Source: Escherichia coli
Lineage (GTDB): Bacteria; Pseudomonadota; Gammaproteobacteria; Enterobacterales; Enterobacteriaceae
DNA length: 64,000 nucleotides
Strand: one strand, 5' to 3'
Assembly (NCBI RefSeq): GCF_048403405.1
Contig: NZ_CP183129.1
In this document: positions 804 to 55,784 of the stretch, one piece after another
Position numbering within the stretch: the stretch's first letter is position 1
Layout of the letters: every line of letters begins with the position of its first letter
Notes under the pieces: model-generated
Told to the model about the DNA's origin: nothing
Seen by the model: the letters and a program-made list of their open reading frames with translations, nothing else
Database searches by the model: none
Program-made: the position numbers and the translations under genes

Positions 804-1759
804 TGAAGCAACTTTGGTTTGCCATGTCATTAGTGACAGGTAGCCTGTTATTCTCTGCTAACGCCTCGGCCACTCCCGCGTCCGGGGCGTTATTACAGCA
901 GATGAACCTGGCCAGTCAGTCACTGAATTACGAGCTGTCATTCATCAGCATCAATAAACAGGGTGTTGAGTCTCTGCGTTATCGACATGCACGCCTCGAT
1001 AACCGTCCTCTTGCACAATTGTTGCAAATGGATGGCCCGCGCCGGGAAGTGGTACAGCGCGGCAATGAAATCAGCTATTTTGAACCGGGACTTGAACCGT
1101 TCACGCTTAATGGCGATTACATTGTTGATTCTCTACCATCGCTCATCTATACCGATTTCAAACGCCTTTCTCCTTACTACGACTTTATCTCCGTCGGGCG
1201 CACGCGTATTGCTGATCGTCTTTGCGAAGTCATTCGTGTGGTTGCCCGAGATGGTACACGCTACAGCTACATCGTGTGGATGGACACCGAATCGAAATTA
1301 CCGATGCGGGTTGATCTCCTTGATCGCGATGGTGAAACGCTGGAACAATTTCGCGTGATTGCTTTTAATGTCAATCAGGATATCAGCAGCAGTATGCAGA
1401 CGTTGGCGAAGGCAAATTTGCCGCCGTTGCTTTCTGTTCCTGTAGGTGAAAAAGCTAAATTCAGCTGGACGCCAACCTGGTTGCCACAGGGTTTTAGCGA
1501 AGTTTCCAGTAGTCGACGTCCGCTACCGACGATGGACAACATGCCTATCGAATCACGTCTCTATTCCGACGGATTATTCAGCTTTTCGGTAAACGTTAAC
1601 CGCGCTACGCCATCGAGCACCGATCAGATGTTGCGCACCGGACGCAGAACCGTCAGTACAAGCGTACGTGATAACGCCGAAATCACCATTGTCGGTGAAC
1701 TGCCGCCGCAAACGGCGAAACGCATTGCCGAGAATATTAAGTTCGGGGCAGCGCAATGA
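803..1759 (+). CDS. rseB: sigma-E regulatory protein RseB (318 aa, periplasmic, signal peptide)
   Basis: ORF 803..1759 with N-terminal signal sequence MKQLWFAMSLVTGSLLFSANASA; operon position after rseA. Confidence 0.9.
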   Translation: MKQLWFAMSLVTGSLLFSANASATPASGALLQQMNLASQSLNYELSFISINKQGVESLRYRHARLDNRPLAQLLQMDGPRREVVQRGNEISYFEPGLEPFTLNGDYIVDSLPSLIYTDFKRLSPYYDFISVGRTRIADRLCEVIRVVARDGTRYSYIVWMDTESKLPMRVDLLDRDGETLEQFRVIAFNVNQDISSSMQTLAKANLPPLLSVPVGEKAKFSWTPTWLPQGFSEVSSSRRPLPTMDNMPIESRLYSDGLFSFSVNVNRATPSSTDQMLRTGRRTVSTSVRDNAEITIVGELPPQTAKRIAENIKFGAAQ

Positions 1760-2235
1760 TCAAAGAGTGGGCTACCGTCATCTCCTGGGAAAACGGGCAG
1801 GCGCTGGTTAGTTGTGATGTTAAAGCCTCATGCAGCAGCTGCGCTTCACGCGCCGGTTGCGGTAGCCGCGTGTTGAATAAACTTGGCCCGCAAACCACGC
1901 ATACCATTGTCGTACCCTGTGATGAGCCGTTAGTGCCGGGGCAAAAAGTAGAATTAGGAATCGCCGAAGGCAGCCTGCTTAGCTCCGCATTACTGGTTTA
2001 TATGTCGCCGTTGATGGGACTATTCCTCATCGCTTCACTATTTCAGCTACTCTTTGCTTCAGATATTGCAGCATTATGCGGTGCGATTCTCGGTGGCGTT
2101 GGTGGATTCCTGATTGCACGTGGCTGCTCTCGAAAGTTTGCTGCCCGGTCTGAATGGCAACCGATCATCTTAAGCGTGGCCTTGCCGCCTGGCCTTGTGC
2201 GATTTGAAACATCTTCGGAAGACGCGAGCCAGTGA
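1756..2235 (+). CDS. rseC: RseC/SoxR-reducing system membrane protein (159 aa)
   Basis: ORF 1756..2235 overlapping rseB stop (ATGA); Cys cluster CSSCASRAGC and two hydrophobic segments. Confidence 0.85.
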   Translation: MIKEWATVISWENGQALVSCDVKASCSSCASRAGCGSRVLNKLGPQTTHTIVVPCDEPLVPGQKVELGIAEGSLLSSALLVYMSPLMGLFLIASLFQLLFASDIAALCGAILGGVGGFLIARGCSRKFAARSEWQPIILSVALPPGLVRFETSSEDASQ

Positions 2236-2432
2236 TTTCACTGGCTTTGTTGCATTTTGCATAACAAATGCGAGGACGTTTCCAGATACCACAATCCATA
2301 CGGTATGAACATTTCCTCGCCTCAATGTTGTAGTGTAGAATGCGGCGTTTCTATTAATACAGACGTTAAGCTCAGAACAGCGACTTCTAAAAGCCTGGTT
2401 AACCGGGCATTAAGGCACAATAATCATACTTT

Positions 2433-4232
2433 ATGAAGAATATACGTAACTTTTCGATCATAGCTCACATTGACCACGGTAAATCGACGCTGTCTGACCG
2501 TATTATCCAGATCTGCGGTGGCCTGTCTGACCGTGAAATGGAGGCGCAGGTTCTCGATTCCATGGATCTTGAGCGTGAGCGTGGCATTACCATCAAAGCG
2601 CAAAGCGTGACGCTGGACTACAAAGCGTCTGACGGCGAAACCTATCAGCTTAACTTTATCGACACCCCGGGCCACGTTGACTTCTCTTATGAAGTTTCTC
2701 GTTCGCTGGCTGCCTGTGAAGGTGCATTGCTGGTGGTCGACGCCGGGCAGGGCGTAGAAGCGCAAACCCTGGCAAACTGCTACACCGCCATGGAAATGGA
2801 TCTCGAAGTGGTGCCGGTACTGAACAAGATTGACCTGCCGGCAGCCGATCCTGAACGCGTGGCGGAAGAAATTGAAGATATTGTCGGCATCGACGCCACC
2901 GACGCGGTGCGCTGTTCAGCGAAAACCGGCGTTGGCGTACAGGACGTTCTCGAACGTCTGGTGCGCGACATTCCGCCGCCGGAAGGCGATCCGGAAGGCC
3001 CGTTGCAGGCACTCATTATCGACTCCTGGTTCGACAACTACCTGGGCGTTGTTTCACTTATCCGTATTAAAAACGGCACCCTGCGTAAGGGCGACAAAGT
3101 GAAAGTCATGAGTACCGGGCAGACCTATAACGCCGACCGTCTGGGCATCTTCACGCCAAAACAGGTTGACCGTACTGAACTGAAATGCGGCGAAGTAGGC
3201 TGGCTGGTATGTGCGATTAAAGATATCCACGGCGCTCCAGTAGGCGATACCTTAACGCTGGCGCGTAATCCGGCAGAAAAGGCGCTGCCTGGCTTTAAGA
3301 AAGTCAAACCGCAGGTATACGCCGGTCTGTTCCCGGTAAGTTCCGACGACTATGAAGCCTTCCGTGATGCGCTGGGTAAACTCAGCCTGAACGATGCCTC
3401 ACTGTTCTATGAGCCGGAAAGCTCAAGCGCGCTGGGCTTTGGTTTCCGCTGCGGCTTCCTCGGTCTGCTGCACATGGAGATCATCCAGGAACGTCTGGAA
3501 CGTGAATACGATCTGGATCTGATTACCACTGCGCCGACCGTAGTGTATGAAGTTGAAACCACGTCAAGAGAAGTTATCTACGTCGACAGCCCATCCAAGC
3601 TGCCAGCGGTAAATAACATCTACGAACTGCGCGAGCCGATTGCAGAATGTCACATGCTGCTGCCGCAGGCATATCTCGGCAACGTTATTACGCTGTGCGT
3701 AGAAAAACGCGGCGTGCAGACCAATATGGTTTACCACGGTAATCAGGTGGCGCTGACGTACGAGATCCCGATGGCGGAAGTGGTGCTCGATTTCTTCGAT
3801 CGCCTGAAATCTACCTCGCGTGGTTATGCGTCTCTGGATTACAACTTCAAACGCTTCCAGGCGTCCGACATGGTACGTGTAGACGTATTAATCAACGGTG
3901 AACGTGTTGATGCGCTGGCGTTGATCACCCACCGTGATAATTCGCAAAACCGCGGTCGCGAGCTGGTGGAGAAGATGAAAGATCTAATCCCACGCCAGCA
4001 GTTTGATATCGCTATTCAGGCAGCGATTGGTACGCACATCATTGCGCGCTCCACCGTGAAACAGCTGCGTAAAAACGTACTGGCTAAATGTTATGGCGGC
4101 GATATCAGCCGTAAGAAAAAGCTGCTGCAGAAGCAGAAAGAAGGTAAGAAACGCATGAAGCAGATCGGTAACGTCGAGCTGCCGCAGGAAGCGTTCCTCG
4201 CCATTCTGCACGTCGGCAAAGACAACAAATAA
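2433..4232 (+). CDS. lepA: translation elongation factor 4 (LepA), 599 aa
   Basis: GTPase motifs [17 protein letters not shown] and NKID at the N-terminus; length and context upstream of lepB. Confidence 0.95.
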
Positions 4233-5276: not shown

Positions 5277-5367
5277 GAGATAAATCTCCCGTGGCTAACG
5301 ACATCCCCCGTCGTTGTGTATAGAATATTCCCCCGAAGTTTAAGGTTGGCACCTCCAGGTTGCCACG

Positions 5368-5461
5368 GCACACGAAACAGCGTTGGTCCCCATATACCGG
5401 TAAACTGAAACTGCAGCGAAGCAGTTAGCAGAACCATGTATATCAGGTCTGTTTCGTGTGC
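5368..5461 (+). promoter_or_regulatory. rnc leader long-range stem (candidate RNase III autoregulatory processing hairpin)
   Basis: Perfect 13-bp inverted repeat gcacacgaaacag (5368-5380) / ctgtttcgtgtgc (5449-5461) in the 5' UTR ending about 35 nt upstream of the rnc ATG. Confidence 0.45.
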
Positions 5462-5464
5462 TGA

Positions 5465-7077
<1,613 letters not shown>

Positions 7078-8959: not shown

Positions 8960-9038
8960 AAAAGTAAAACCCCCGAACTGGTAAGGAACAGGGGGTTTAC
9001 TTTACAACTTTAATTTTGTGCAGCACGCACCCTCAACA
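8960..9038 (-). ncRNA. ohsC: OhsC-like antitoxin sRNA (approximate boundaries)
   Basis: Minus strand: -10-like CATAAT (9050..9045), then hairpin 8998..8966 with a U-tract; contains the reverse complement of 9018-9039, which matches the shoB 5' UTR. Confidence 0.5.
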
Positions 9039-17000: not shown

Positions 17001-17902
17001 GTGACAACCCGGAGTGTGCCGACCAGGAGCACCAGGCGAAATCAAACGACGCCGATCCGGGCCTGAATGTAAAACTGTCGTTCGATATCAACGAAGATGT
17101 GGCAGCACCGTATATTGCCACTGGCGCACGTCCGAAAGTTGCTGTGCTGCGTGAGCAGGGCGTGAACTCGCATGTTGAAATGGCGGCAGCTTTCCACCGT
17201 GCAGGCTTCGATGCTATCGACGTGCATATGAGCGACCTGCTGGCTGGACGCACGGGCCTGGAGGATTTCCACGCCCTGGTCGCGTGCGGTGGTTTCTCCT
17301 ACGGTGATGTGCTGGGTGCCGGTGAAGGTTGGGCGAAGTCTATCCTGTTCAATGACCGTGTACGCGATGAGTTTGCAACCTTCTTCCATCGTCCGCAAAC
17401 GCTGGCGCTGGGGGTATGTAACGGTTGCCAGATGATGTCTAACCTGCGCGAACTGATCCCAGGTAGTGAGTTGTGGCCACGTTTTGTGCGTAACACCTCC
17501 GATCGCTTTGAAGCGCGTTTCAGCCTGGTTGAAGTGACCCAAAGCCCGTCACTGCTATTGCAGGGGATGGTGGGCTCGCAAATGCCGATTGCTGTGTCTC
17601 ACGGTGAAGGGCGTGTGGAAGTGCGTGATGCGGCGCATCTGGCGGCACTGGAAAGCAAAGGGCTGGTGGCACTGCGCTATGTCGATAACTTCGGCAAAGT
17701 CACTGAAACCTACCCGGCTAACCCGAACGGTTCTCCGAACGGTATTACGGCGGTCACGACTGAAAGTGGTCGAGTCACCATTATGATGCCGCACCCGGAA
17801 CGTGTTTTCCGTACTGTCAGCAACTCCTGGCATCCGGAAAACTGGGGCGAGGATGGGCCGTGGATGCGTATTTTCCGCAATGCACGTAAGCAGTTGGGGT
17901 AA
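14015..17902 (+). CDS. purL: phosphoribosylformylglycinamidine synthase (1295 aa)
   Basis: Large single ORF; C-terminal glutamine amidotransferase domain with catalytic Cys in GVCNGCQMM. Confidence 0.95.
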
Positions 17903-17960
17903 GCCGTCAACCCATTGGTTTTGCAGCCGGATGAGGCATTAAGCACCAACTACTATTATA

Positions 17961-17985
17961 AGCTCCCAACTTCGGGAGCTTTTTT
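17961..17985 (+). terminator. purL intrinsic terminator
   Basis: agctccc-aacttc-gggagct hairpin followed by TTTTT. Confidence 0.6.
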
Positions 17986-17986
17986 G

Positions 17987-18100
17987 TGTCTGTAAATCAC
18001 GACAATGGGTGGTTTGCCGTGTCGCTTTCTGGCGACATTTAACTCATTGATTTTAATATTATCTAATAAGTTTATCTTAAGTTGTCTCTTTTTAGCGACA
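17987..18100 (+). promoter_or_regulatory. three GlrR-type activator sites (TGTC-N10-GACA) upstream of glmY
   Basis: TGTCtgtaaatcacGACA (17987-18004), TGTCgctttctggcGACA (18020-18037) and TGTCtctttttagcGACA (18083-18100). Confidence 0.6.
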
Positions 18101-18189
18101 CAGTGGCTGATTTACATTCAAATAGCGAAGAAGCCATAAATCCCTCAAAGCAGCATATAATCAGTACGTTACCAAACTATTTTCTTTAT

Positions 18190-18209
18190 TGGCACAGTTA
18201 CTGCATAAT
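18190..18209 (+). promoter_or_regulatory. glmY promoter with overlapping sigma-54 (-24/-12) and sigma-70 (-10) elements
   Basis: TGGCAC-agtta-CTGCA (18190-18205) matches the sigma-54 consensus TGGCAC-N5-TTGCA; CATAAT at 18204-18209; +1 predicted near 18217. Confidence 0.6.
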
Positions 18210-18216
18210 AGTAACC

Positions 18217-18400
18217 AGTGGCTCATTCACCGACTTATGTCAGCCCCTTCGGGACGTGCTACATAAAATACGAATGACGCACAACAAGGTGCCTGCCGTC
18301 CAACTTCTGATATCAGCGTAGCTATATCAACCATCGGGCGAAACGTCGAGTTAGGCACCGCCTTATTCCATAACAAAGCCGGGTAATTCCCGGCTTTGTT
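18217..18400 (+). ncRNA. glmY: GlmY small RNA (184 nt)
   Basis: Begins AGTGGCTCATTCACCGACTTATGTCAGCCCC; ends with hairpin aaagccggg-taatt-cccggcttt (18375-18397) plus a U-tract; lies between purL and glrK. Confidence 0.85.
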
Positions 18401-18458
18401 GTATCTGAACTTCCCCTCGGTTAGCATCAGGCTATTCGCGTCTGACGAGAGTAACACC

Positions 18459-19886
18459 TTGAAACGCTGGCCCGTTTTTCCCCGCTCATTACGACAACTG
18501 GTAATGCTGGCATTTTTGCTGATTCTGCTGCCCCTGTTGGTGCTGGCATGGCAAGCCTGGCAAAGCCTGAATGCACTTAGCGATCAGGCAGCGCTGGTTA
18601 ACCGCACTACGCTTATTGATGCCCGGCGCAGTGAAGCGATGACCAACGCGGCACTGGAGATGGAGCGCAGCTACCGTCAGTACTGCGTGCTGGACGACCC
18701 TACGCTTGCGAAGGTTTATCAAAGCCAGCGCAAGCGTTACAGCGAAATGCTTGATGCCCACGCAGGCGTGCTGCCGGACGATAAACTCTACCAGGCATTA
18801 CGTCAGGATTTGAACAATCTGGCTCAACTTCAGTGTAACAACAGTGGTCCTGATGCCGCCGCCGCCGCGCGTCTTGAAGCCTTTGCCAGTGCCAATACCG
18901 AAATGGTGCAGGCCACGCGCACAGTAGTGTTCTCTCGTGGGCAGCAACTTCAGCGTGAAATCGCCGAACGTGGGCAATATTTTGGTTGGCAATCGCTGGT
19001 GCTATTTCTGGTGAGTCTGGTGATGGTGCTACTTTTCACGAGGATGATTATCGGTCCGGTGAAAAATATCGAGCGCATGATCAACCGGCTGGGGGAAGGG
19101 CGTTCTCTGGGCAATAGTGTCTCGTTCAGTGGACCGAGCGAGTTACGCTCGGTTGGGCAACGTATTCTTTGGTTAAGTGAGCGCCTGTCATGGCTGGAAT
19201 CCCAACGCCATCAATTTTTAAGACATTTATCTCATGAATTAAAAACGCCACTGGCGAGTATGCGCGAGGGCACTGAATTACTGGCTGACCAGGTTGTCGG
19301 GCCGCTTACGCCAGAGCAAAAAGAGGTGGTGAGCATTCTTGATAGCAGCAGCCGCAATTTGCAAAAGTTGATCGAACAACTGCTTGATTACAACCGTAAA
19401 CAGGCGGACGGTGCGGTGGAACTGGAGAATGTTGAGTTAGCGCCACTGGTGGAAATGGTGGTTTCTGCTCATAGCCTGCCCGCGCGGGCTAAAATGATGC
19501 ATACCGATGTCGATCTCAAAGCAACAGCTTGCCTGGCGGAGCCAATGCTGCTGATGAGCGTACTGGATAATCTTTACTCCAATGCGGTGCACTACGGGGC
19601 TGAATCCGGTAACATTTGCCTTCGCAGCAGTTTACATGGCGCGCGGGTTTATATTGATGTCATCAATACAGGAACACCCATTCCGCAAGAGGAACGCGCC
19701 ATGATCTTCGAACCCTTTTTTCAGGGAAGCCACCAGCGAAAAGGGGCGGTGAAGGGCAGCGGTCTGGGATTAAGCATTGCCAGGGATTGTATTCGCCGTA
19801 TGCAAGGGGAACTGTATCTGGTCGACGAGAGCGGGCAAGACGTTTGCTTCCGCATTGAATTGCCGTCGTCGAAAAACACGAAATAA
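18459..19886 (+). CDS. glrK: sensor histidine kinase GlrK (475 aa, TTG start)
   Basis: ORF 18396..19886; the in-frame TTG at 18459 gives (M)KRWPVFPRSLRQ...; two transmembrane segments; H-box LSHELKTPL; HATPase domain. Confidence 0.85.
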   Translation: MKRWPVFPRSLRQLVMLAFLLILLPLLVLAWQAWQSLNALSDQAALVNRTTLIDARRSEAMTNAALEMERSYRQYCVLDDPTLAKVYQSQRKRYSEMLDAHAGVLPDDKLYQALRQDLNNLAQLQCNNSGPDAAAAARLEAFASANTEMVQATRTVVFSRGQQLQREIAERGQYFGWQSLVLFLVSLVMVLLFTRMIIGPVKNIERMINRLGEGRSLGNSVSFSGPSELRSVGQRILWLSERLSWLESQRHQFLRHLSHELKTPLASMREGTELLADQVVGPLTPEQKEVVSILDSSSRNLQKLIEQLLDYNRKQADGAVELENVELAPLVEMVVSAHSLPARAKMMHTDVDLKATACLAEPMLLMSVLDNLYSNAVHYGAESGNICLRSSLHGARVYIDVINTGTPIPQEERAMIFEPFFQGSHQRKGAVKGSGLGLSIARDCIRRMQGELYLVDESGQDVCFRIELPSSKNTK

Positions 19887-20050: not shown

Positions 20051-20764
20051 ATGCGACACATTTTTCAACGATTATTGCCCCGACGGCTGTGGCTGGCAGG
20101 GCTGCCATGTCTGGCATTGCTGGGTTGTGTGCAGAGTCACAATAAACCAGCCATTGATACGCCAGCAGAAGAAAAAATTCCGGTTTATCAACTGGCTGAC
20201 TATCTTTCTACTGAATGTAGCGACATCTGGGCGCTGCAAGGTAAATCAACCGAAACCAATCCGCTTTACTGGCTGCGGGCGATGGATTGTGCTGATCGTT
20301 TAATGCCTGCGCAGTCGCGTCAGCAAGCTCGCCAATATGACGACGGCAGCTGGCAAAAGACCTTTAAACAAGGGATTTTGCTCGCCGACGCCAAAATTAC
20401 GCCGTATGAGCGCCGCCAGCTGGTCGCGCGCATTGATGCGCTAAGTACCGAGATCCCGGCACAGGTTCGCCCTCTGTATCAACTCTGGCGCGACGGTCAG
20501 GCGCTGCAACTGCAACTGGCGGAAGAGCGCCAACGCTACGGCAAACTCCAGCAATCCAGCGACAGCGAGCTGGATACATTGCGCCAGCAACATCACGTTC
20601 TACAGCAGCAACTGGAACTCACCACCCGCAAGCTGGAAAACCTGACCGATATTGAACGCCAGCTCTCGACCCGCAAACCGGCTGGAAATTTCTCGCCGGA
20701 TACGCCGCACGAGGGTGAAAAGCCCGCGCCATCCATCCATGAGGTCACTCCTGATGAGCCATAA
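20051..20764 (+). CDS. qseG: outer-membrane lipoprotein QseG (237 aa)
   Basis: Signal peptide with lipobox LALLGC; coiled-coil rich C-terminus; sits between the kinase and regulator genes. Confidence 0.8.
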   Translation: MRHIFQRLLPRRLWLAGLPCLALLGCVQSHNKPAIDTPAEEKIPVYQLADYLSTECSDIWALQGKSTETNPLYWLRAMDCADRLMPAQSRQQARQYDDGSWQKTFKQGILLADAKITPYERRQLVARIDALSTEIPAQVRPLYQLWRDGQALQLQLAEERQRYGKLQQSSDSELDTLRQQHHVLQQQLELTTRKLENLTDIERQLSTRKPAGNFSPDTPHEGEKPAPSIHEVTPDEP

Positions 20765-22088
20765 ACCTGCGCATTTATTATTGGTCGATGACGATCCGGG
20801 ATTGCTGAAACTGCTTGGCCTGCGCCTGATCAGCGAAGGCTACAGTGTGGTCACGGCGGAAAGTGGCGCTGAAGGATTACGGGTACTGAATCGCGAAAAA
20901 GTAGATTTAGTTATCAGCGACCTGCGGATGGATGAAATGGACGGTATGCAGCTGTTTGCTGAAATTCAGAAAGTGCAGCCTGGAATGCCAGTAATTATTC
21001 TTACCGCGCATGGTTCTATTCCCGATGCCGTTGCTGCAACACAGCAGGGAGTGTTCAGTTTCCTCACCAAGCCTGTCGATAAAGACGCGCTATATCAGGC
21101 AATTGACGATGCGCTGGAACAATCCGCGCCAGCCACCGATGAACGCTGGCGCGAGGCGATTGTCACCCGCAGCCCGCTGATGCTGCGTTTGCTGGAACAG
21201 GCGCGGCTGGTGGCGCAATCAGACGTCAGCGTTTTGATTAATGGCCAGAGCGGCACCGGGAAAGAGATTTTCGCCCAGGCTATCCACAACGCCAGCCCGC
21301 GTAACAGCAAGCCGTTTATTGCTATTAACTGTGGTGCATTGCCCGAGCAATTGCTGGAGTCGGAACTGTTTGGTCATGCGCGTGGCGCGTTTACTGGCGC
21401 TGTCAGCAATCGCGAAGGTTTATTCCAGGCGGCGGAAGGCGGTACGCTATTTCTCGATGAGATTGGCGATATGCCCGCACCGTTGCAGGTTAAACTGCTG
21501 CGCGTGTTGCAGGAGCGTAAAGTGCGCCCGCTGGGCAGTAACCGCGATATTGATATCGACGTGCGGATTATTTCTGCCACTCACCGCGACCTGCCAAAAG
21601 CGATGGCGCGCGGGGAATTCCGCGAAGATCTCTATTACCGCCTCAACGTTGTCAGCCTGAAAATTCCGGCACTGGCGGAGCGTACAGAAGACATTCCGCT
21701 ACTGGCAAATCACCTGTTGCGCCAGGCGGCAGAGCGACATAAACCGTTTGTCCGCGCGTTCTCCACCGATGCGATGAAACGCCTGATGACCGCGAGCTGG
21801 CCGGGTAATGTGCGCCAGTTGGTCAACGTGATTGAACAGTGCGTGGCGCTGACCTCATCTCCGGTGATTAGCGATGCATTAGTAGAGCAGGCGCTGGAGG
21901 GCGAAAACACGGCGCTGCCAACCTTTGTTGAAGCACGTAATCAGTTTGAACTCAACTATTTGCGTAAGCTGCTGCAAATCACCAAAGGCAACGTCACCCA
22001 CGCGGCGAGAATGGCGGGGCGCAACCGGACAGAATTTTATAAACTGCTTTCCCGACACGAGCTGGATGCAAACGATTTCAAGGAATGA
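20754..22088 (+). CDS. glrR: sigma-54-dependent response regulator GlrR (444 aa)
   Basis: Receiver LLVDDD; AAA+ Walker A GQSGTGKE; sigma-54 contact motif GAFTGA; C-terminal HTH; 11-nt overlap with qseG. Confidence 0.9.
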
Positions 22089-47599: not shown

Positions 47600-47710
47600 T
47601 AAAAAGTATTCAGAATCAGGCCGGAGTGTTTAACACTCCGTAAACACGGTCGTACATCCAGCCGGTAGCCTGGTTCCTTGCATTGAGTGATGTACGGAGT
47701 TTATAGAGCA

Positions 47711-52706: not shown

Positions 52707-52950
52707 TTTCCCCGTCATGCTTCACGCCGCAGATGCGTTGGCTGCGCTCGTTCACCCCAGTCACATAGTTATCTATGCTCCTGGGGCTTCACTCACTTGC
52801 CGCGTGATTCGGCCTTTTGGCCTCACCCCTCCGGGGCCAGCGCAAGCGCTGTTCAAAACGCAATGCGTTTTGTCCTGCAACGCGAATCATTTAGCGGAAA
52901 AATCCTGGGGCTGCCAACTGGCGGCCCTTTTACAAAGAAGGATAACTAAA

Positions 52951-54352: not shown

Positions 54353-55129
54353 ATGTCCGAAACAAAAAACGAACTTGAAGATCTGCTGGAAAAAGCAGCA
54401 ACCGAACCGGCGCACCGCCCGGCCTTTTTCCGTACGCTACTGGAATCCACCGTCTGGGTGCCGGGTACGGCGGCGCAGGGCGAGGCTGTGGTTGAAGATA
54501 GCGCGCTTGATTTACAGCACTGGGAAAAAGAAGACGGCACCAGCGTCATTCCTTTTTTTACCTCGTTAGAAGCACTTCAACAGGCGGTTGAAGACGAACA
54601 GGCATTTGTCGTAATGCCCGTTCGCACATTGTTTGAGATGACCCTTGGCGAAACGCTCTTCCTTAATGCCAAACTGCCGACCGGTAAAGAATTTATGCCG
54701 CGTGAAATCAGTTTGTTGATTGGTGAAGAAGGAAATCCGCTGAGCAGCCAGGAAGTACTGGAGGGCGGTGAATCGCTGATATTATCGGAAGTCGCAGAGC
54801 CACCAGCACAAATGATTGATTCACTCACCACCTTATTTAAAACTATTAAGCCGGTGAAGCGTGCTTTTATTTGTTCAATTAAAGAGAACGAAGAGACACA
54901 GCCTAATTTACTTATTGGCATTGAAGCCGATGGTGATATCGAAGAAATTATTCAGGCGGCGGGAAGTGTAGCGACCGATACATTACCTGGCGATGAACCC
55001 ATCGATATTTGTCAGGTGAAAAAAGGGGAAAAAGGAATTAGCCACTTTATTACCGAACATATTGCGCCATTCTATGAACGTCGCTGGGGTGGCTTTTTGC
55101 GTGACTTTAAACAGAACCGGATAATCTAA
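54353..55129 (+). CDS. sseB: SseB, enhancer of serine sensitivity (258 aa)
   Basis: ORF 54344..55129; start at MSETKNELEDLLEKA. Confidence 0.85.
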   Translation: MSETKNELEDLLEKAATEPAHRPAFFRTLLESTVWVPGTAAQGEAVVEDSALDLQHWEKEDGTSVIPFFTSLEALQQAVEDEQAFVVMPVRTLFEMTLGETLFLNAKLPTGKEFMPREISLLIGEEGNPLSSQEVLEGGESLILSEVAEPPAQMIDSLTTLFKTIKPVKRAFICSIKENEETQPNLLIGIEADGDIEEIIQAAGSVATDTLPGDEPIDICQVKKGEKGISHFITEHIAPFYERRWGGFLRDFKQNRII

Positions 55130-55134
55130 AATAT

Positions 55135-55152
55135 GCCGCCCCAAAGGGCGGC
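55135..55152. terminator. hairpin shared by sseB (+) and the convergent ryfA-like RNA (-)
   Basis: gccgccc-caaa-gggcggc; on the minus strand the stem is followed by AUAUUUUAGAUU. Confidence 0.55.
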
Positions 55153-55160
55153 ATTCGGGC

Positions 55161-55298
55161 TTACTTGCTGCTCTGAAGTTTGTTAACCACCAGTAAATTG
55201 TTACCGGAGAGACTCCGGTTATTATTTACCTCGGTTAACAGCGCACCAGAAACAATAAGTACGATACAAAAGCACCGTATCTTCATTGTGCGGTCCAT
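55161..55298 (-). CDS. candidate small hydrophobic (TimP/type I toxin-like) protein, 45 aa (41 aa from second ATG at 55286)
   Basis: Manual translation: MDRTMKIRCFCIVLIVSGALLTEVNNNRSLSGNNLLVVNKLQSSK; in-frame TGA five codons upstream of the first ATG; no obvious SD; too short for the ORF track. Confidence 0.4.
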   Translation of the reverse strand: MDRTMKIRCFCIVLIVSGALLTEVNNNRSLSGNNLLVVNKLQSSK

Positions 55299-55505
55299 GC
55301 GAAGACCGCATCACGACAGCACCACTGGCGATATTGCCGCGATAGCAAGCGCTGAGACGCGCTTGCCCTAACGGTCGCGGAACATCCTTTCCTTGAGCCA
55401 GCGCCCGCTTGCGAGACGGCGGAAAGGGCCGGTGTCGATAATACGCTAAATAAACAATGATTACTCTCTTTCGCTTGACAAAAAGAGAGTTACTGGCGAG
55501 TATTG

Positions 55506-55606
55506 TGTCCGCTGAGACGCGCTTGCATTACTACGGTAATACAATCTGCTGGAAAGGCCGCGAACCAAACCAGCAACAAATAACCGCCTGATTTTGGCGG
55601 TTTTTT
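55506..55606 (+). ncRNA. candidate antitoxin-type sRNA, module 1 (approximate)
   Basis: TTGACA (55475-55480)-18 bp-AGTATT, then about 100 nt ending in aaccgcc-tgatttt-ggcggtt + TTTTTT (55582-55606); nt 55510-55526 are perfectly complementary to the minus-strand RNA at 55350-55366. Confidence 0.45.
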
Positions 55607-55784
55607 GTTGCTTAAAGAAAGTGAATTTACATGTTTAAGTAATATCTTTTACCGGTTAGTATTTTTAATATTGAGCGGGATTTGTTTATATTTGTCTGAA
55701 TTCGGACTGATAAGCCAAATGAATTCAAAATCTATCCTTTTTTATCTACTTGACATCGTTGATGCATAAAGCGAGTATTGAGTA

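Follow-up and report, generated by a model that had tools for sequence, protein, structure and literature searches.

The closest described counterpart of the locus analysed here is glmY of E. coli K-12, whose +1 and footprints were reportedly mapped by Reichenbach in 2009, in work cited here through the same group's later papers. The dual promoter of glmY, its GlrR sites, its dependence on IHF and the independent glrK-qseG-glrR operon have been known since 2009 (see also Göpel & Görke 2018). In K-12, glmY transcription depends on GlrR, sigma-54 and IHF; IHF is needed for the sigma-54 promoter, and two IHF sites flank ABS3, one of three activator binding sites (ABS1-3) (PMC3045617). ABS2 is essential and ABS1 dispensable in E. 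coli (PMC3045617); ABS3 is also published as essential. The sigma-70 promoter, whose characterised -10 hexamer is CATAAT, uses the same start nucleotide as the sigma-54 promoter (PMC3045617), and the glmY literature describes it as weak, with "putative -35 sequences" (PMC3045617, PMC4152352). The RNA is 184 nt long as a primary transcript and 148 nt after processing (PMC4152352), and protects GlmZ by serving as a decoy for RapZ (PMC3045617, PMC4152352).

Related arrangements have been described outside E. coli. The glmY promoters of Salmonella, Citrobacter and Enterobacter (groups II/III of Göpel 2011) share the ABS positions, the sigma-54 promoter and the overlapping CATAAT, but their ABS3 usually reads TGTT...GACA (56/77 genomes), and both the N10 spacers and the spacer from ABS3 to the promoter diverge freely. 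The glmY-qseEGF region of Proteus mirabilis matches that of E. coli in gene order and likewise has a sigma-54 promoter dependent on QseF, three QseF sites and IHF sites, but is reported to have neither a terminator after glmY nor a promoter between glmY and qseE, with the result that the sRNA is transcribed together with the two-component genes (PMC8745638); this is the only organism for which such co-transcription has been reported. In contrast, the E. coli locus has a strong terminator as well as an independent promoter, and a Proteus-type operon is not found there. Promoters of the glnAp2/nifH type resemble glmY in having upstream activator sites at a distance of over 100 bp, an IHF bend and the -24 GG / -12 GC elements; E. 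coli glmY differs from them in the number of dyad sites, three where they have two, and in a sigma-70 promoter that overlaps completely and shares the start nucleotide.

The window, 64,000 nucleotides (64 kb) of E. coli DNA, contains what is almost certainly the canonical E. coli glmY dual-promoter locus with a separately transcribed glrK, and the sequence offers nothing against that reading. The elements, the 184-nt glmY, the gap that follows it and the glrK start are base-identical to those of K-12 (Reichenbach, Göpel & Görke 2009; Göpel et al. 2011), and the initial annotation, which had read the locus from the letters and taken it for the dual-promoter architecture of glmY, proves accurate to the base and in agreement with the published promoter. 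Our analysis covers the sequence anatomy, the identity to K-12, the start codon and conservation in about 80 genomes; the comparative set consists of 77-80 Enterobacteriaceae genomes whose contigs were scanned for the glmY-glrK locus, so that denominators are 77, 79 or 80. The features are as follows.

17960-17985, plus strand: purL intrinsic terminator, hairpin 17960-17981 plus T-run, from a terminator scan
17987-18004, no strand assigned: ABS1, GlrR/QseF site TGTCTGTAAATCACGACA, exact match, -230 to -213 from the glmY +1
18020-18037, no strand assigned: ABS2, GlrR/QseF site TGTCGCTTTCTGGCGACA, exact match, -197 to -180
18040-18052, minus strand: IHF consensus site AATCAATGAGTTA between ABS2 and ABS3, exact match to WATCARNNNNTTR
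18083-18100, no strand assigned: ABS3, GlrR/QseF site TGTCTCTTTTTAGCGACA, exact match, -134 to -117
18159-18171, plus strand: IHF consensus site AATCAGTACGTTA between ABS3 and the promoter, exact match to WATCARNNNNTTR
18190-18205, plus strand: sigma-54 promoter TGGCAC-N5-CTGCA, GG at 18191-18192 and GC at 18203-18204
18204-18209, plus strand: sigma-70 -10 hexamer CATAAT, -13 to -8, as read from the letters, overlapping the -12 element of the sigma-54 promoter
18217-18400, plus strand: glmY primary transcript, 184 nt, to which K-12 ncRNA glmY (b4441) aligns exactly
18422-18434, plus strand: inferred core of the qseEGF sigma-70 promoter, -10-like TAGCAT at 18422-18427, start at about 18434
18447-18451, plus strand: Shine-Dalgarno-like GAGAG, 7 nt upstream of the TTG
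18459-19886, plus strand: glrK/qseE, sensor histidine kinase, 475 aa, TTG start, as annotated by PGAP and in K-12
20051-20764, plus strand: qseG, lipoprotein gene, by annotation; NCBIfam equivalog NF007997, 356 bits against a cutoff of 234
20754-22088, plus strand: glrR/qseF, sigma-54-dependent response regulator, by annotation and GlrR equivalog NF011695

The gene order is purL-glmY-glrK(qseE)-qseG-glrR(qseF)-glnB, and the synteny of purL-glmY-glrK-qseG-glrR is the same in K-12 and in an annotated genome identical to this region. The purL reading frame ends at 17902, and its terminator ends 1-2 nt before ABS1. The cognate enhancer-binding regulator is encoded within the glmY locus itself: GlrR scores 980 bits against NF011695 (cutoff 763) and has Response_reg and Sigma54_activat domains. 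The rpoE sigma-54 promoter, the second known QseF target, is absent from the window, which begins inside rseA. The region is 100% identical in six E. coli genomes and present in 5425 of 5426, and the haplotype of this strain is rare, with at least 99% identity over 801 bp in only 39 of the 5425. Compared with K-12 by alignment, 18156-18520 shows zero differences and the regulatory elements named here are all unchanged. From ABS1 to the glrK start there are only eight SNPs, one at 18038 and seven within 18123-18155, all of them in spacers and none in a named element, and the few further differences lie in the purL 3' region and the terminator loop.

Exact TGTC-N10-GACA occurs only three times in the window, at 17987-18004, 18020-18037 and 18083-18100, where 0.86 matches would be expected; these are the positions at which the initial annotation had placed its three activator sites. 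That the palindromes are chance matches, or sites of another regulator (QseB only, for example) and not of GlrR, has a practically negligible probability: at least three matches do fall somewhere in the window in 4 of 100 shuffles, and a review mentions a putative QseB site in the glmY promoter (PMC4152352), but a Poisson estimate puts the chance of three sites within 114 bp at about 1e-6, 77 genomes keep their positions and spacing but not the sequence of the N10 spacers, which varies freely, and GlrR binding and mutational data are already published (PMC3045617, PMC4152352). Assigned to GlrR, the three sites lie at fixed positions (-230/-197/-134). They are not evenly organised, as had been claimed, since successive sites start 33 and 63 bp apart, or about three and six helical turns; this spacing is conserved, the 63 bp between ABS2 and ABS3 being found in 75/77 genomes. 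Both half-sites of ABS1 are perfect at the homologous position in 72/77 genomes, and the glmY'-lacZ fusion of PMC3045617, which spans -238 to +22, includes this site. The half-sites of ABS2 are perfect in 64/77 genomes and have one mismatch in 13/77, and ABS3 at its homologous position is perfect in 13/77, with one mismatch (usually TGTT) in 56/77 and two in 8/77. The fixed ABS spacing, together with the TTG/GTG start of glrK described below, is a modest comparative addition, from about 80 genomes, to what was known of this locus.

The two IHF consensus sites at 18040-18052 and 18159-18171 are probably the published sites flanking ABS3. The first forms a conserved block in the alignment, with no mismatch in 58/77 genomes and one in 18/77. 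Conservation of the second across genera is weaker (no mismatch in 15/77, one in 36/77), and its ATCA...GTTA block is conserved in the alignment. Between ABS3 and this second site lies the stretch 18123-18155 that holds seven of the eight SNPs. It is unconstrained across genera and polymorphic across E. coli, so relaxed constraint would be the simplest reading of the SNP cluster. A TATAAT at 18156-18161 was weighed as a possible additional promoter and dismissed: it lacks a -35, is not conserved and overlaps the IHF-like site.

The sigma-54 promoter is the single exact match to TGGCAC-N5-YTGCW in the window. Its -24/-12 motif is invariant (TGGCAY and NTGCA in 79/79 genomes), and the 17-mer TTGGCACAGTTACTGCA, a K-12 sigma-54 ChIP-seq site assigned to glmY (PMC4591121), occurs identically here. 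As read earlier, the GC of the -12 element overlaps the CATAAT hexamer, with coordinates that are exact, and CATAAT stands at the homologous position in 62/79 genomes. A consensus scan of 17850-18550 reported no sigma-70-type promoter and no good -35 for CATAAT, which fits a weak sigma-70 promoter.

For the RNA itself, K-12 b4441 and the Rfam match both start at 18217, the 5' end previously proposed for GlmY. The Rfam model RF00128 (GlmY_tke1, clan CL00011) covers 18217-18364 with 146 bits against a gathering threshold of 33 (E = 1.7e-33, model positions 1-163), and the processed 148-nt form corresponds to the same interval. The transcript folds into three stem-loops (-64.2 kcal/mol, z = -4.8) and, as had been noted, its 184 nt end 58 nt before glrK, K-12 glmY aligning to 18217-18400 and the TTG lying at 18459. 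Folding clearly shows a GC-rich terminator hairpin of 12 bp at 18372-18400, whose stem carries compensatory changes across genera in the alignment. A simple terminator scan missed this terminator, probably because the T-run is partly drawn into the stem.

Taken with the published work, which is the source for the binding of GlrR and IHF, the common +1, the independent transcription of glrK and the function of GlmY, this anatomy suggests how the locus would operate. GlrR, whose gene lies 2.3 kb downstream, is a sigma-54 enhancer-binding protein, and in its phosphorylated form it would bind the three TGTC-N10-GACA sites; with the intervening DNA bent by IHF, the GlrR oligomer would drive open-complex formation at the sigma-54 promoter. 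The weak sigma-70 promoter would start at the same nucleotide, A18217, and because the +1 is shared, both routes would yield the same 184-nt GlmY. After trimming to 148 nt, GlmY would serve as the RapZ decoy in the GlmY/GlmZ/glmS circuit. The strong hairpin terminator would end GlmY at 18400, and the 58-nt gap would hold a separate weak sigma-70 promoter for glrK (start at about 18434), whose translation would begin at the conserved TTG at 18459.

A separate question is the source of the glrK transcript. The initial annotation had suggested that terminator read-through versus an independent promoter probably sets the level of the kinase and so couples the sRNA to its own regulator, a proposal contradicted by published data from K-12, where it has already been tested and rejected on identical sequence. 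There, qseEGF is driven by a weak sigma-70 promoter of its own, which starts 25 bp before the start codon; RT-PCR finds read-through from glmY to be virtually absent, expression of a qseE'-lacZ fusion is unaffected by deletion of qseF or qseG, and no autoregulation is found (PMC6075780). The operon is likewise described as "transcribed independently" of glmY (PMC3045617). In the present sequence, TAGCAT at 18422-18427 may be the -10 of this promoter; in an alignment of 12 genera the CTCRGTTAGCATC block is conserved in most, Enterobacter and Trabulsiella having substitutions.

The general form of the coupling proposal, that read-through of the glmY terminator supplies a meaningful share of glrK mRNA and feeds back on the kinase, draws on the arrangement of the genes: glmY and glrK share a strand with 58 nt between them, and glmY precedes glrK in 79/79 loci with enough upstream sequence. 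It also draws on Proteus mirabilis, where glmY-qseEGF is reported to be one operon, but co-transcription in that organism has been put down to the absence of a terminator of the kind found here (PMC8745638), and the 12-bp GC-rich hairpin of E. coli is kept by compensatory changes. More directly, in K-12, which is identical over 18156-18520, qseE'-lacZ activity is unchanged when the whole glmY locus is placed upstream (PMC6075780). We therefore regard the coupling model as very unlikely and, for standard conditions, as largely refuted. Literature on EHEC was also considered for glmY-qseE co-transcription, and set aside: the word "cotranscribed" in PMC3903284 refers to espJ-espFu, not to glmY.

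Independently transcribed glrK would begin with a TTG. The reading frame at 18459-19886 is annotated as glrK/qseE in a 100%-identical RefSeq genome and in K-12, and PGAP names the product QseE/GlrK. The protein has HisKA and HATPase_c domains (Pfam), and no NCBIfam equivalog model scored above cutoff for it. The earlier choice of TTG 18459 as the only in-frame start giving the expected N-terminus holds, as codon periodicity begins exactly there as well: variability by codon position is 0.11/0.04/0.375 over codons 1-15 and flat upstream (0.42/0.44/0.40). The N-terminus predicted from this start reads MKRWPVFPRSLRQ.... Residues 7-12 and 14 never vary, although 2-5 synonymous codons are in use for each of them; 77/79 loci have Leu at residue 13, and GAGAG(T) upstream of the start is kept in most of 80 loci.

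Other starts can be read in the same frame, which is open back to a stop at 18384-18386 and includes TTGs at 18396 and 18399, while ATG, the commonest start codon, occurs at 18504 (Met16). Translation from any of these is extremely unlikely. Residue 16 is Met in only 61/79 loci and Thr, Ile or Val elsewhere; the third-position-biased variation starts right after TTG 18459 and is absent upstream; an in-frame stop lies 12-39 nt upstream in many genomes, with no other start codon between; and the two upstream TTGs fall inside the glmY terminator and upstream of the published qseE start site (-25). With TTG 18459 as the start, the codon at this position is TTG in 74/80 loci, GTG in 6/80 and ATG in none.

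A tentative idea, which we hold to be possible but rather doubtful, is that the TTG may be a selected translational throttle and, separately, that the polymorphic spacer 18123-18155 may tune the looping between ABS3 and the promoter; neither proposal was found in the glmY/qseE literature cited here. ATG is one mutation away from the glrK TTG, yet it is absent from 80 loci. QseE was undetectable in a global proteome (PMC6075780), compared with a QseF level of about 36 molecules in a K-12 cell, and the TTG start may contribute to this low abundance of the kinase. If so, a translational throttle and a weak, non-autoregulated promoter would together keep the kinase far below its regulator.

The glmY-glrK feature of this window is real and was accurately placed by the initial annotation, but it has already been described in detail; the reading offered there is right apart from the proposed coupling of the sRNA to the kinase gene. 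The Rfam GlmY model matches 18217-18364 (146 bits versus a gathering score of 33), a length equal to the published 148 nt of processed GlmY, which is cut from a 184-nt RNA and acts as a RapZ decoy (PMC4152352). When the window is aligned to K-12, glmY falls at 18217-18400 and the glrK (qseE) start at TTG 18459, which bears out the claim of a 184-nt RNA ending 58 nt before the kinase gene. Three stem-loops make up the predicted fold of the RNA (-64.2 kcal/mol, z = -4.8), with a 12-bp hairpin (AACAAAGCCGGG/CCCGGCUUUGUU, 18372-18400) at its 3' end. Six complete E. coli genomes match the 801 bp around the feature with 100% identity, and 5425 of the 5426 genomes carry this stretch.

The PGAP annotation of one identical genome lists purL, qseE (18459-19886 in the window), qseG, glrR and glnB; the K-12 record additionally has the ncRNA glmY (b4441, 184 nt). 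The kinase downstream of glmY contains HisKA and HATPase_c domains, the QseG lipoprotein scores above its equivalog cutoff, and GlrR (980 bits versus a cutoff of 763) contains receiver and sigma-54-interaction domains. NZ_CP128875.1, a perfect match across the 801 bp searched, has a PGAP annotation without a glmY ncRNA feature, unlike the K-12 record. Most RefSeq annotations of E. coli silently omit this sRNA. The other Rfam families in the window fit the E. coli rseABC-lepA-rnc...isc...ryfA neighbourhood.

Other Rfam matches in the window (above gathering score)
1720-2551, minus strand, AsrC
5335-5549, plus strand, rncO
8961-9037, minus strand, ohsC
47600-47709, plus strand, iscRS element
52808-52880, minus strand, AaHKsRNA22 (marginal, 45 bits versus 39.8)
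55128-55432, minus strand, ryfA
55564-55741, minus strand, IS128

GlrR attaches to three TGTCN10GACA motifs lying over 100 bp upstream and so turns on the sigma-54 promoter; the second and third activator binding sites (ABS2, ABS3) are essential, ABS1 being dispensable (PMC3045617). A search of all 64 kb finds exactly three perfect TGTC-N10-GACA sites, at 17987, 18020 and 18083 as initially annotated, where dinucleotide shuffles predict 0.86 per window; a Poisson estimate gives about 1e-6 for three within 114 bp. The signal lies in the clustering of perfect sites, since the one-mismatch pattern is not above chance (17 versus 20.6 expected). The sites had been called evenly organised, which is loose, as their start-to-start spacings are 33 bp and then 63 bp (about three and six helical turns). 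In the 17960-18004 region, the purL terminator hairpin and T-run stop 1-2 nt short of ABS1, which puts the distal GlrR site right against the end of the preceding transcription unit; the hairpin loop carries one SNP relative to K-12.

The sigma-54 consensus TGGCAC-N5-YTGCW has a single exact match in the window (18190-18205), and its GC at 18203-18204 is overlapped by CATAAT at 18204-18209, confirming the proposed overlap of the -12 region with a -10 element. In K-12 a weak sigma-70 promoter with this -10 overlaps the sigma-54 promoter and uses the same start nucleotide (PMC3045617; PMC4152352). The 17-mer TTGGCACAGTTACTGCA, identical in the window, belongs to the stronger sigma-54 ChIP-seq sites in an excerpt of the K-12 site table (PMC4591121). 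The sigma-54 promoter cannot do without IHF (PMC3045617), and two exact matches to the IHF consensus flank ABS3, both on blocks conserved between genomes.

Candidate IHF sites
18040-18052, minus strand, exact consensus match
18159-18171, plus strand, exact consensus match

A perfect TATAAT (18156-18161), 56 nt 5' of the glmY +1, overlaps the second of these; no recognisable -35 was found for it, and it is not conserved in other species.

From ABS1 to the glrK start, eight positions differ between the window and K-12, namely 18038 and seven SNPs within 33 bp (18123-18155) between ABS3 and the IHF-like site. All lie outside the named elements, and the two sequences agree throughout 18156-18520. 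Across the 5425 genomes, the 116-nt spacer (18101-18216) is 90 to 100% identical, with 1939 genomes at 90-95%. This patch, polymorphic and set between regulatory elements that are invariant, is most simply explained by relaxed constraint.

A GlrK search of genome contigs yielded 80 loci from Escherichia, Citrobacter, Salmonella, Enterobacter, Kosakonia, Buttiauxella and other genera, and blastn placed glmY in 79 of them.

Conservation of glmY promoter elements (positions relative to glmY +1)
ABS1 (-230): perfect half-sites in 72/77
ABS2 (-197): perfect half-sites in 64/77
ABS3 (-134): perfect half-sites in 13/77, usually TGTT; one mismatch in 56, two in 8
Position of each ABS: -1 to +3 bp relative to E. 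coli
ABS1-ABS2 spacing: 33 bp in 56 and 32 bp in 19 of 75 scored
ABS2-ABS3 spacing: 63 bp in 75/77
TGGCAY and NTGCA: 79/79
CATAAT: 62/79

This comparison independently reproduces the result of Göpel et al. 2011 from 39 genomes (PMC3045617). Outside Escherichia and Salmonella, ABS3 is the least conserved site, despite being essential in K-12. In eight loci (L006, L011, L016, L048, L051, L052, L054 and L056) the search at -134 gave no ABS3 within one mismatch of TGTC-N10-GACA; in L006, Escherichia albertii, the position reads AGTC...GACG.

The homologous glrK start codon is TTG in 74 loci, GTG in six and ATG in none. Averaged for each codon position, variability is 0.11/0.04/0.375 over codons 1-15 and flat (0.42/0.44/0.40) over the 15 triplets 5' of the TTG. 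Residues 7-12 (P-R-S-L-R-Q) and 14 (V) are invariant, each through two to five different synonymous codons, and residue 13 is Leu in 77/79. The next ATG (Met16, 18504) is Met in only 61/79 loci, and many genomes have a stop 12-39 nt 5' of the start with no other start codon between. The in-frame TTGs at 18396 and 18399 lie inside the glmY terminator, 5' of the published qseE transcription start. Translation from TTG 18459, as originally assigned, thus appears well supported at the sequence level. This near-universal TTG/GTG start and the patch at 18123-18155 are the residual points of the analysis, and both are small. Five loci (L066, L069, L073, L077 and L079: two Buttiauxella, Cedecea, Dryocola and one labelled Enterobacter sp.) have an in-frame ATG 9 nt 5' of the conserved TTG (ATGAAGCTATTG), and their kinase may start three residues earlier.

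Direct tests in K-12 contradict the suggestion that terminator read-through versus an independent promoter sets the kinase level, coupling the sRNA to its own regulator (PMC6075780). There, qseEGF is served by a weak sigma-70 promoter of its own, directly 3' of glmY and starting 25 bp before the start codon; the entire glmY locus upstream leaves qseE'-lacZ activity unaltered, and RT-PCR detects virtually no read-through and no autoregulation is seen (PMC6075780). The published start corresponds to ~18434 in the window, with TAGCAT seven nt 5' of it, conserved across most aligned genera. Because the window is identical to K-12 over this stretch, the absence of coupling should transfer to this strain. 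Proteus mirabilis, said to be without the terminator, is the only organism for which co-transcription has been reported (PMC8745638).

L055, L061 and L079 have 390, 410 and 336 nt, respectively, between glmY +1 and the glrK start, versus 241-280 elsewhere, which suggests insertions between the sRNA and kinase genes in these three loci. In L056 (CACSKA010000009.1), titled Chryseobacterium sp. 18061, the glmY-glrK locus is typical of Enterobacteriaceae (82% amino-acid identity), and this assembly is probably contaminated or mislabelled.
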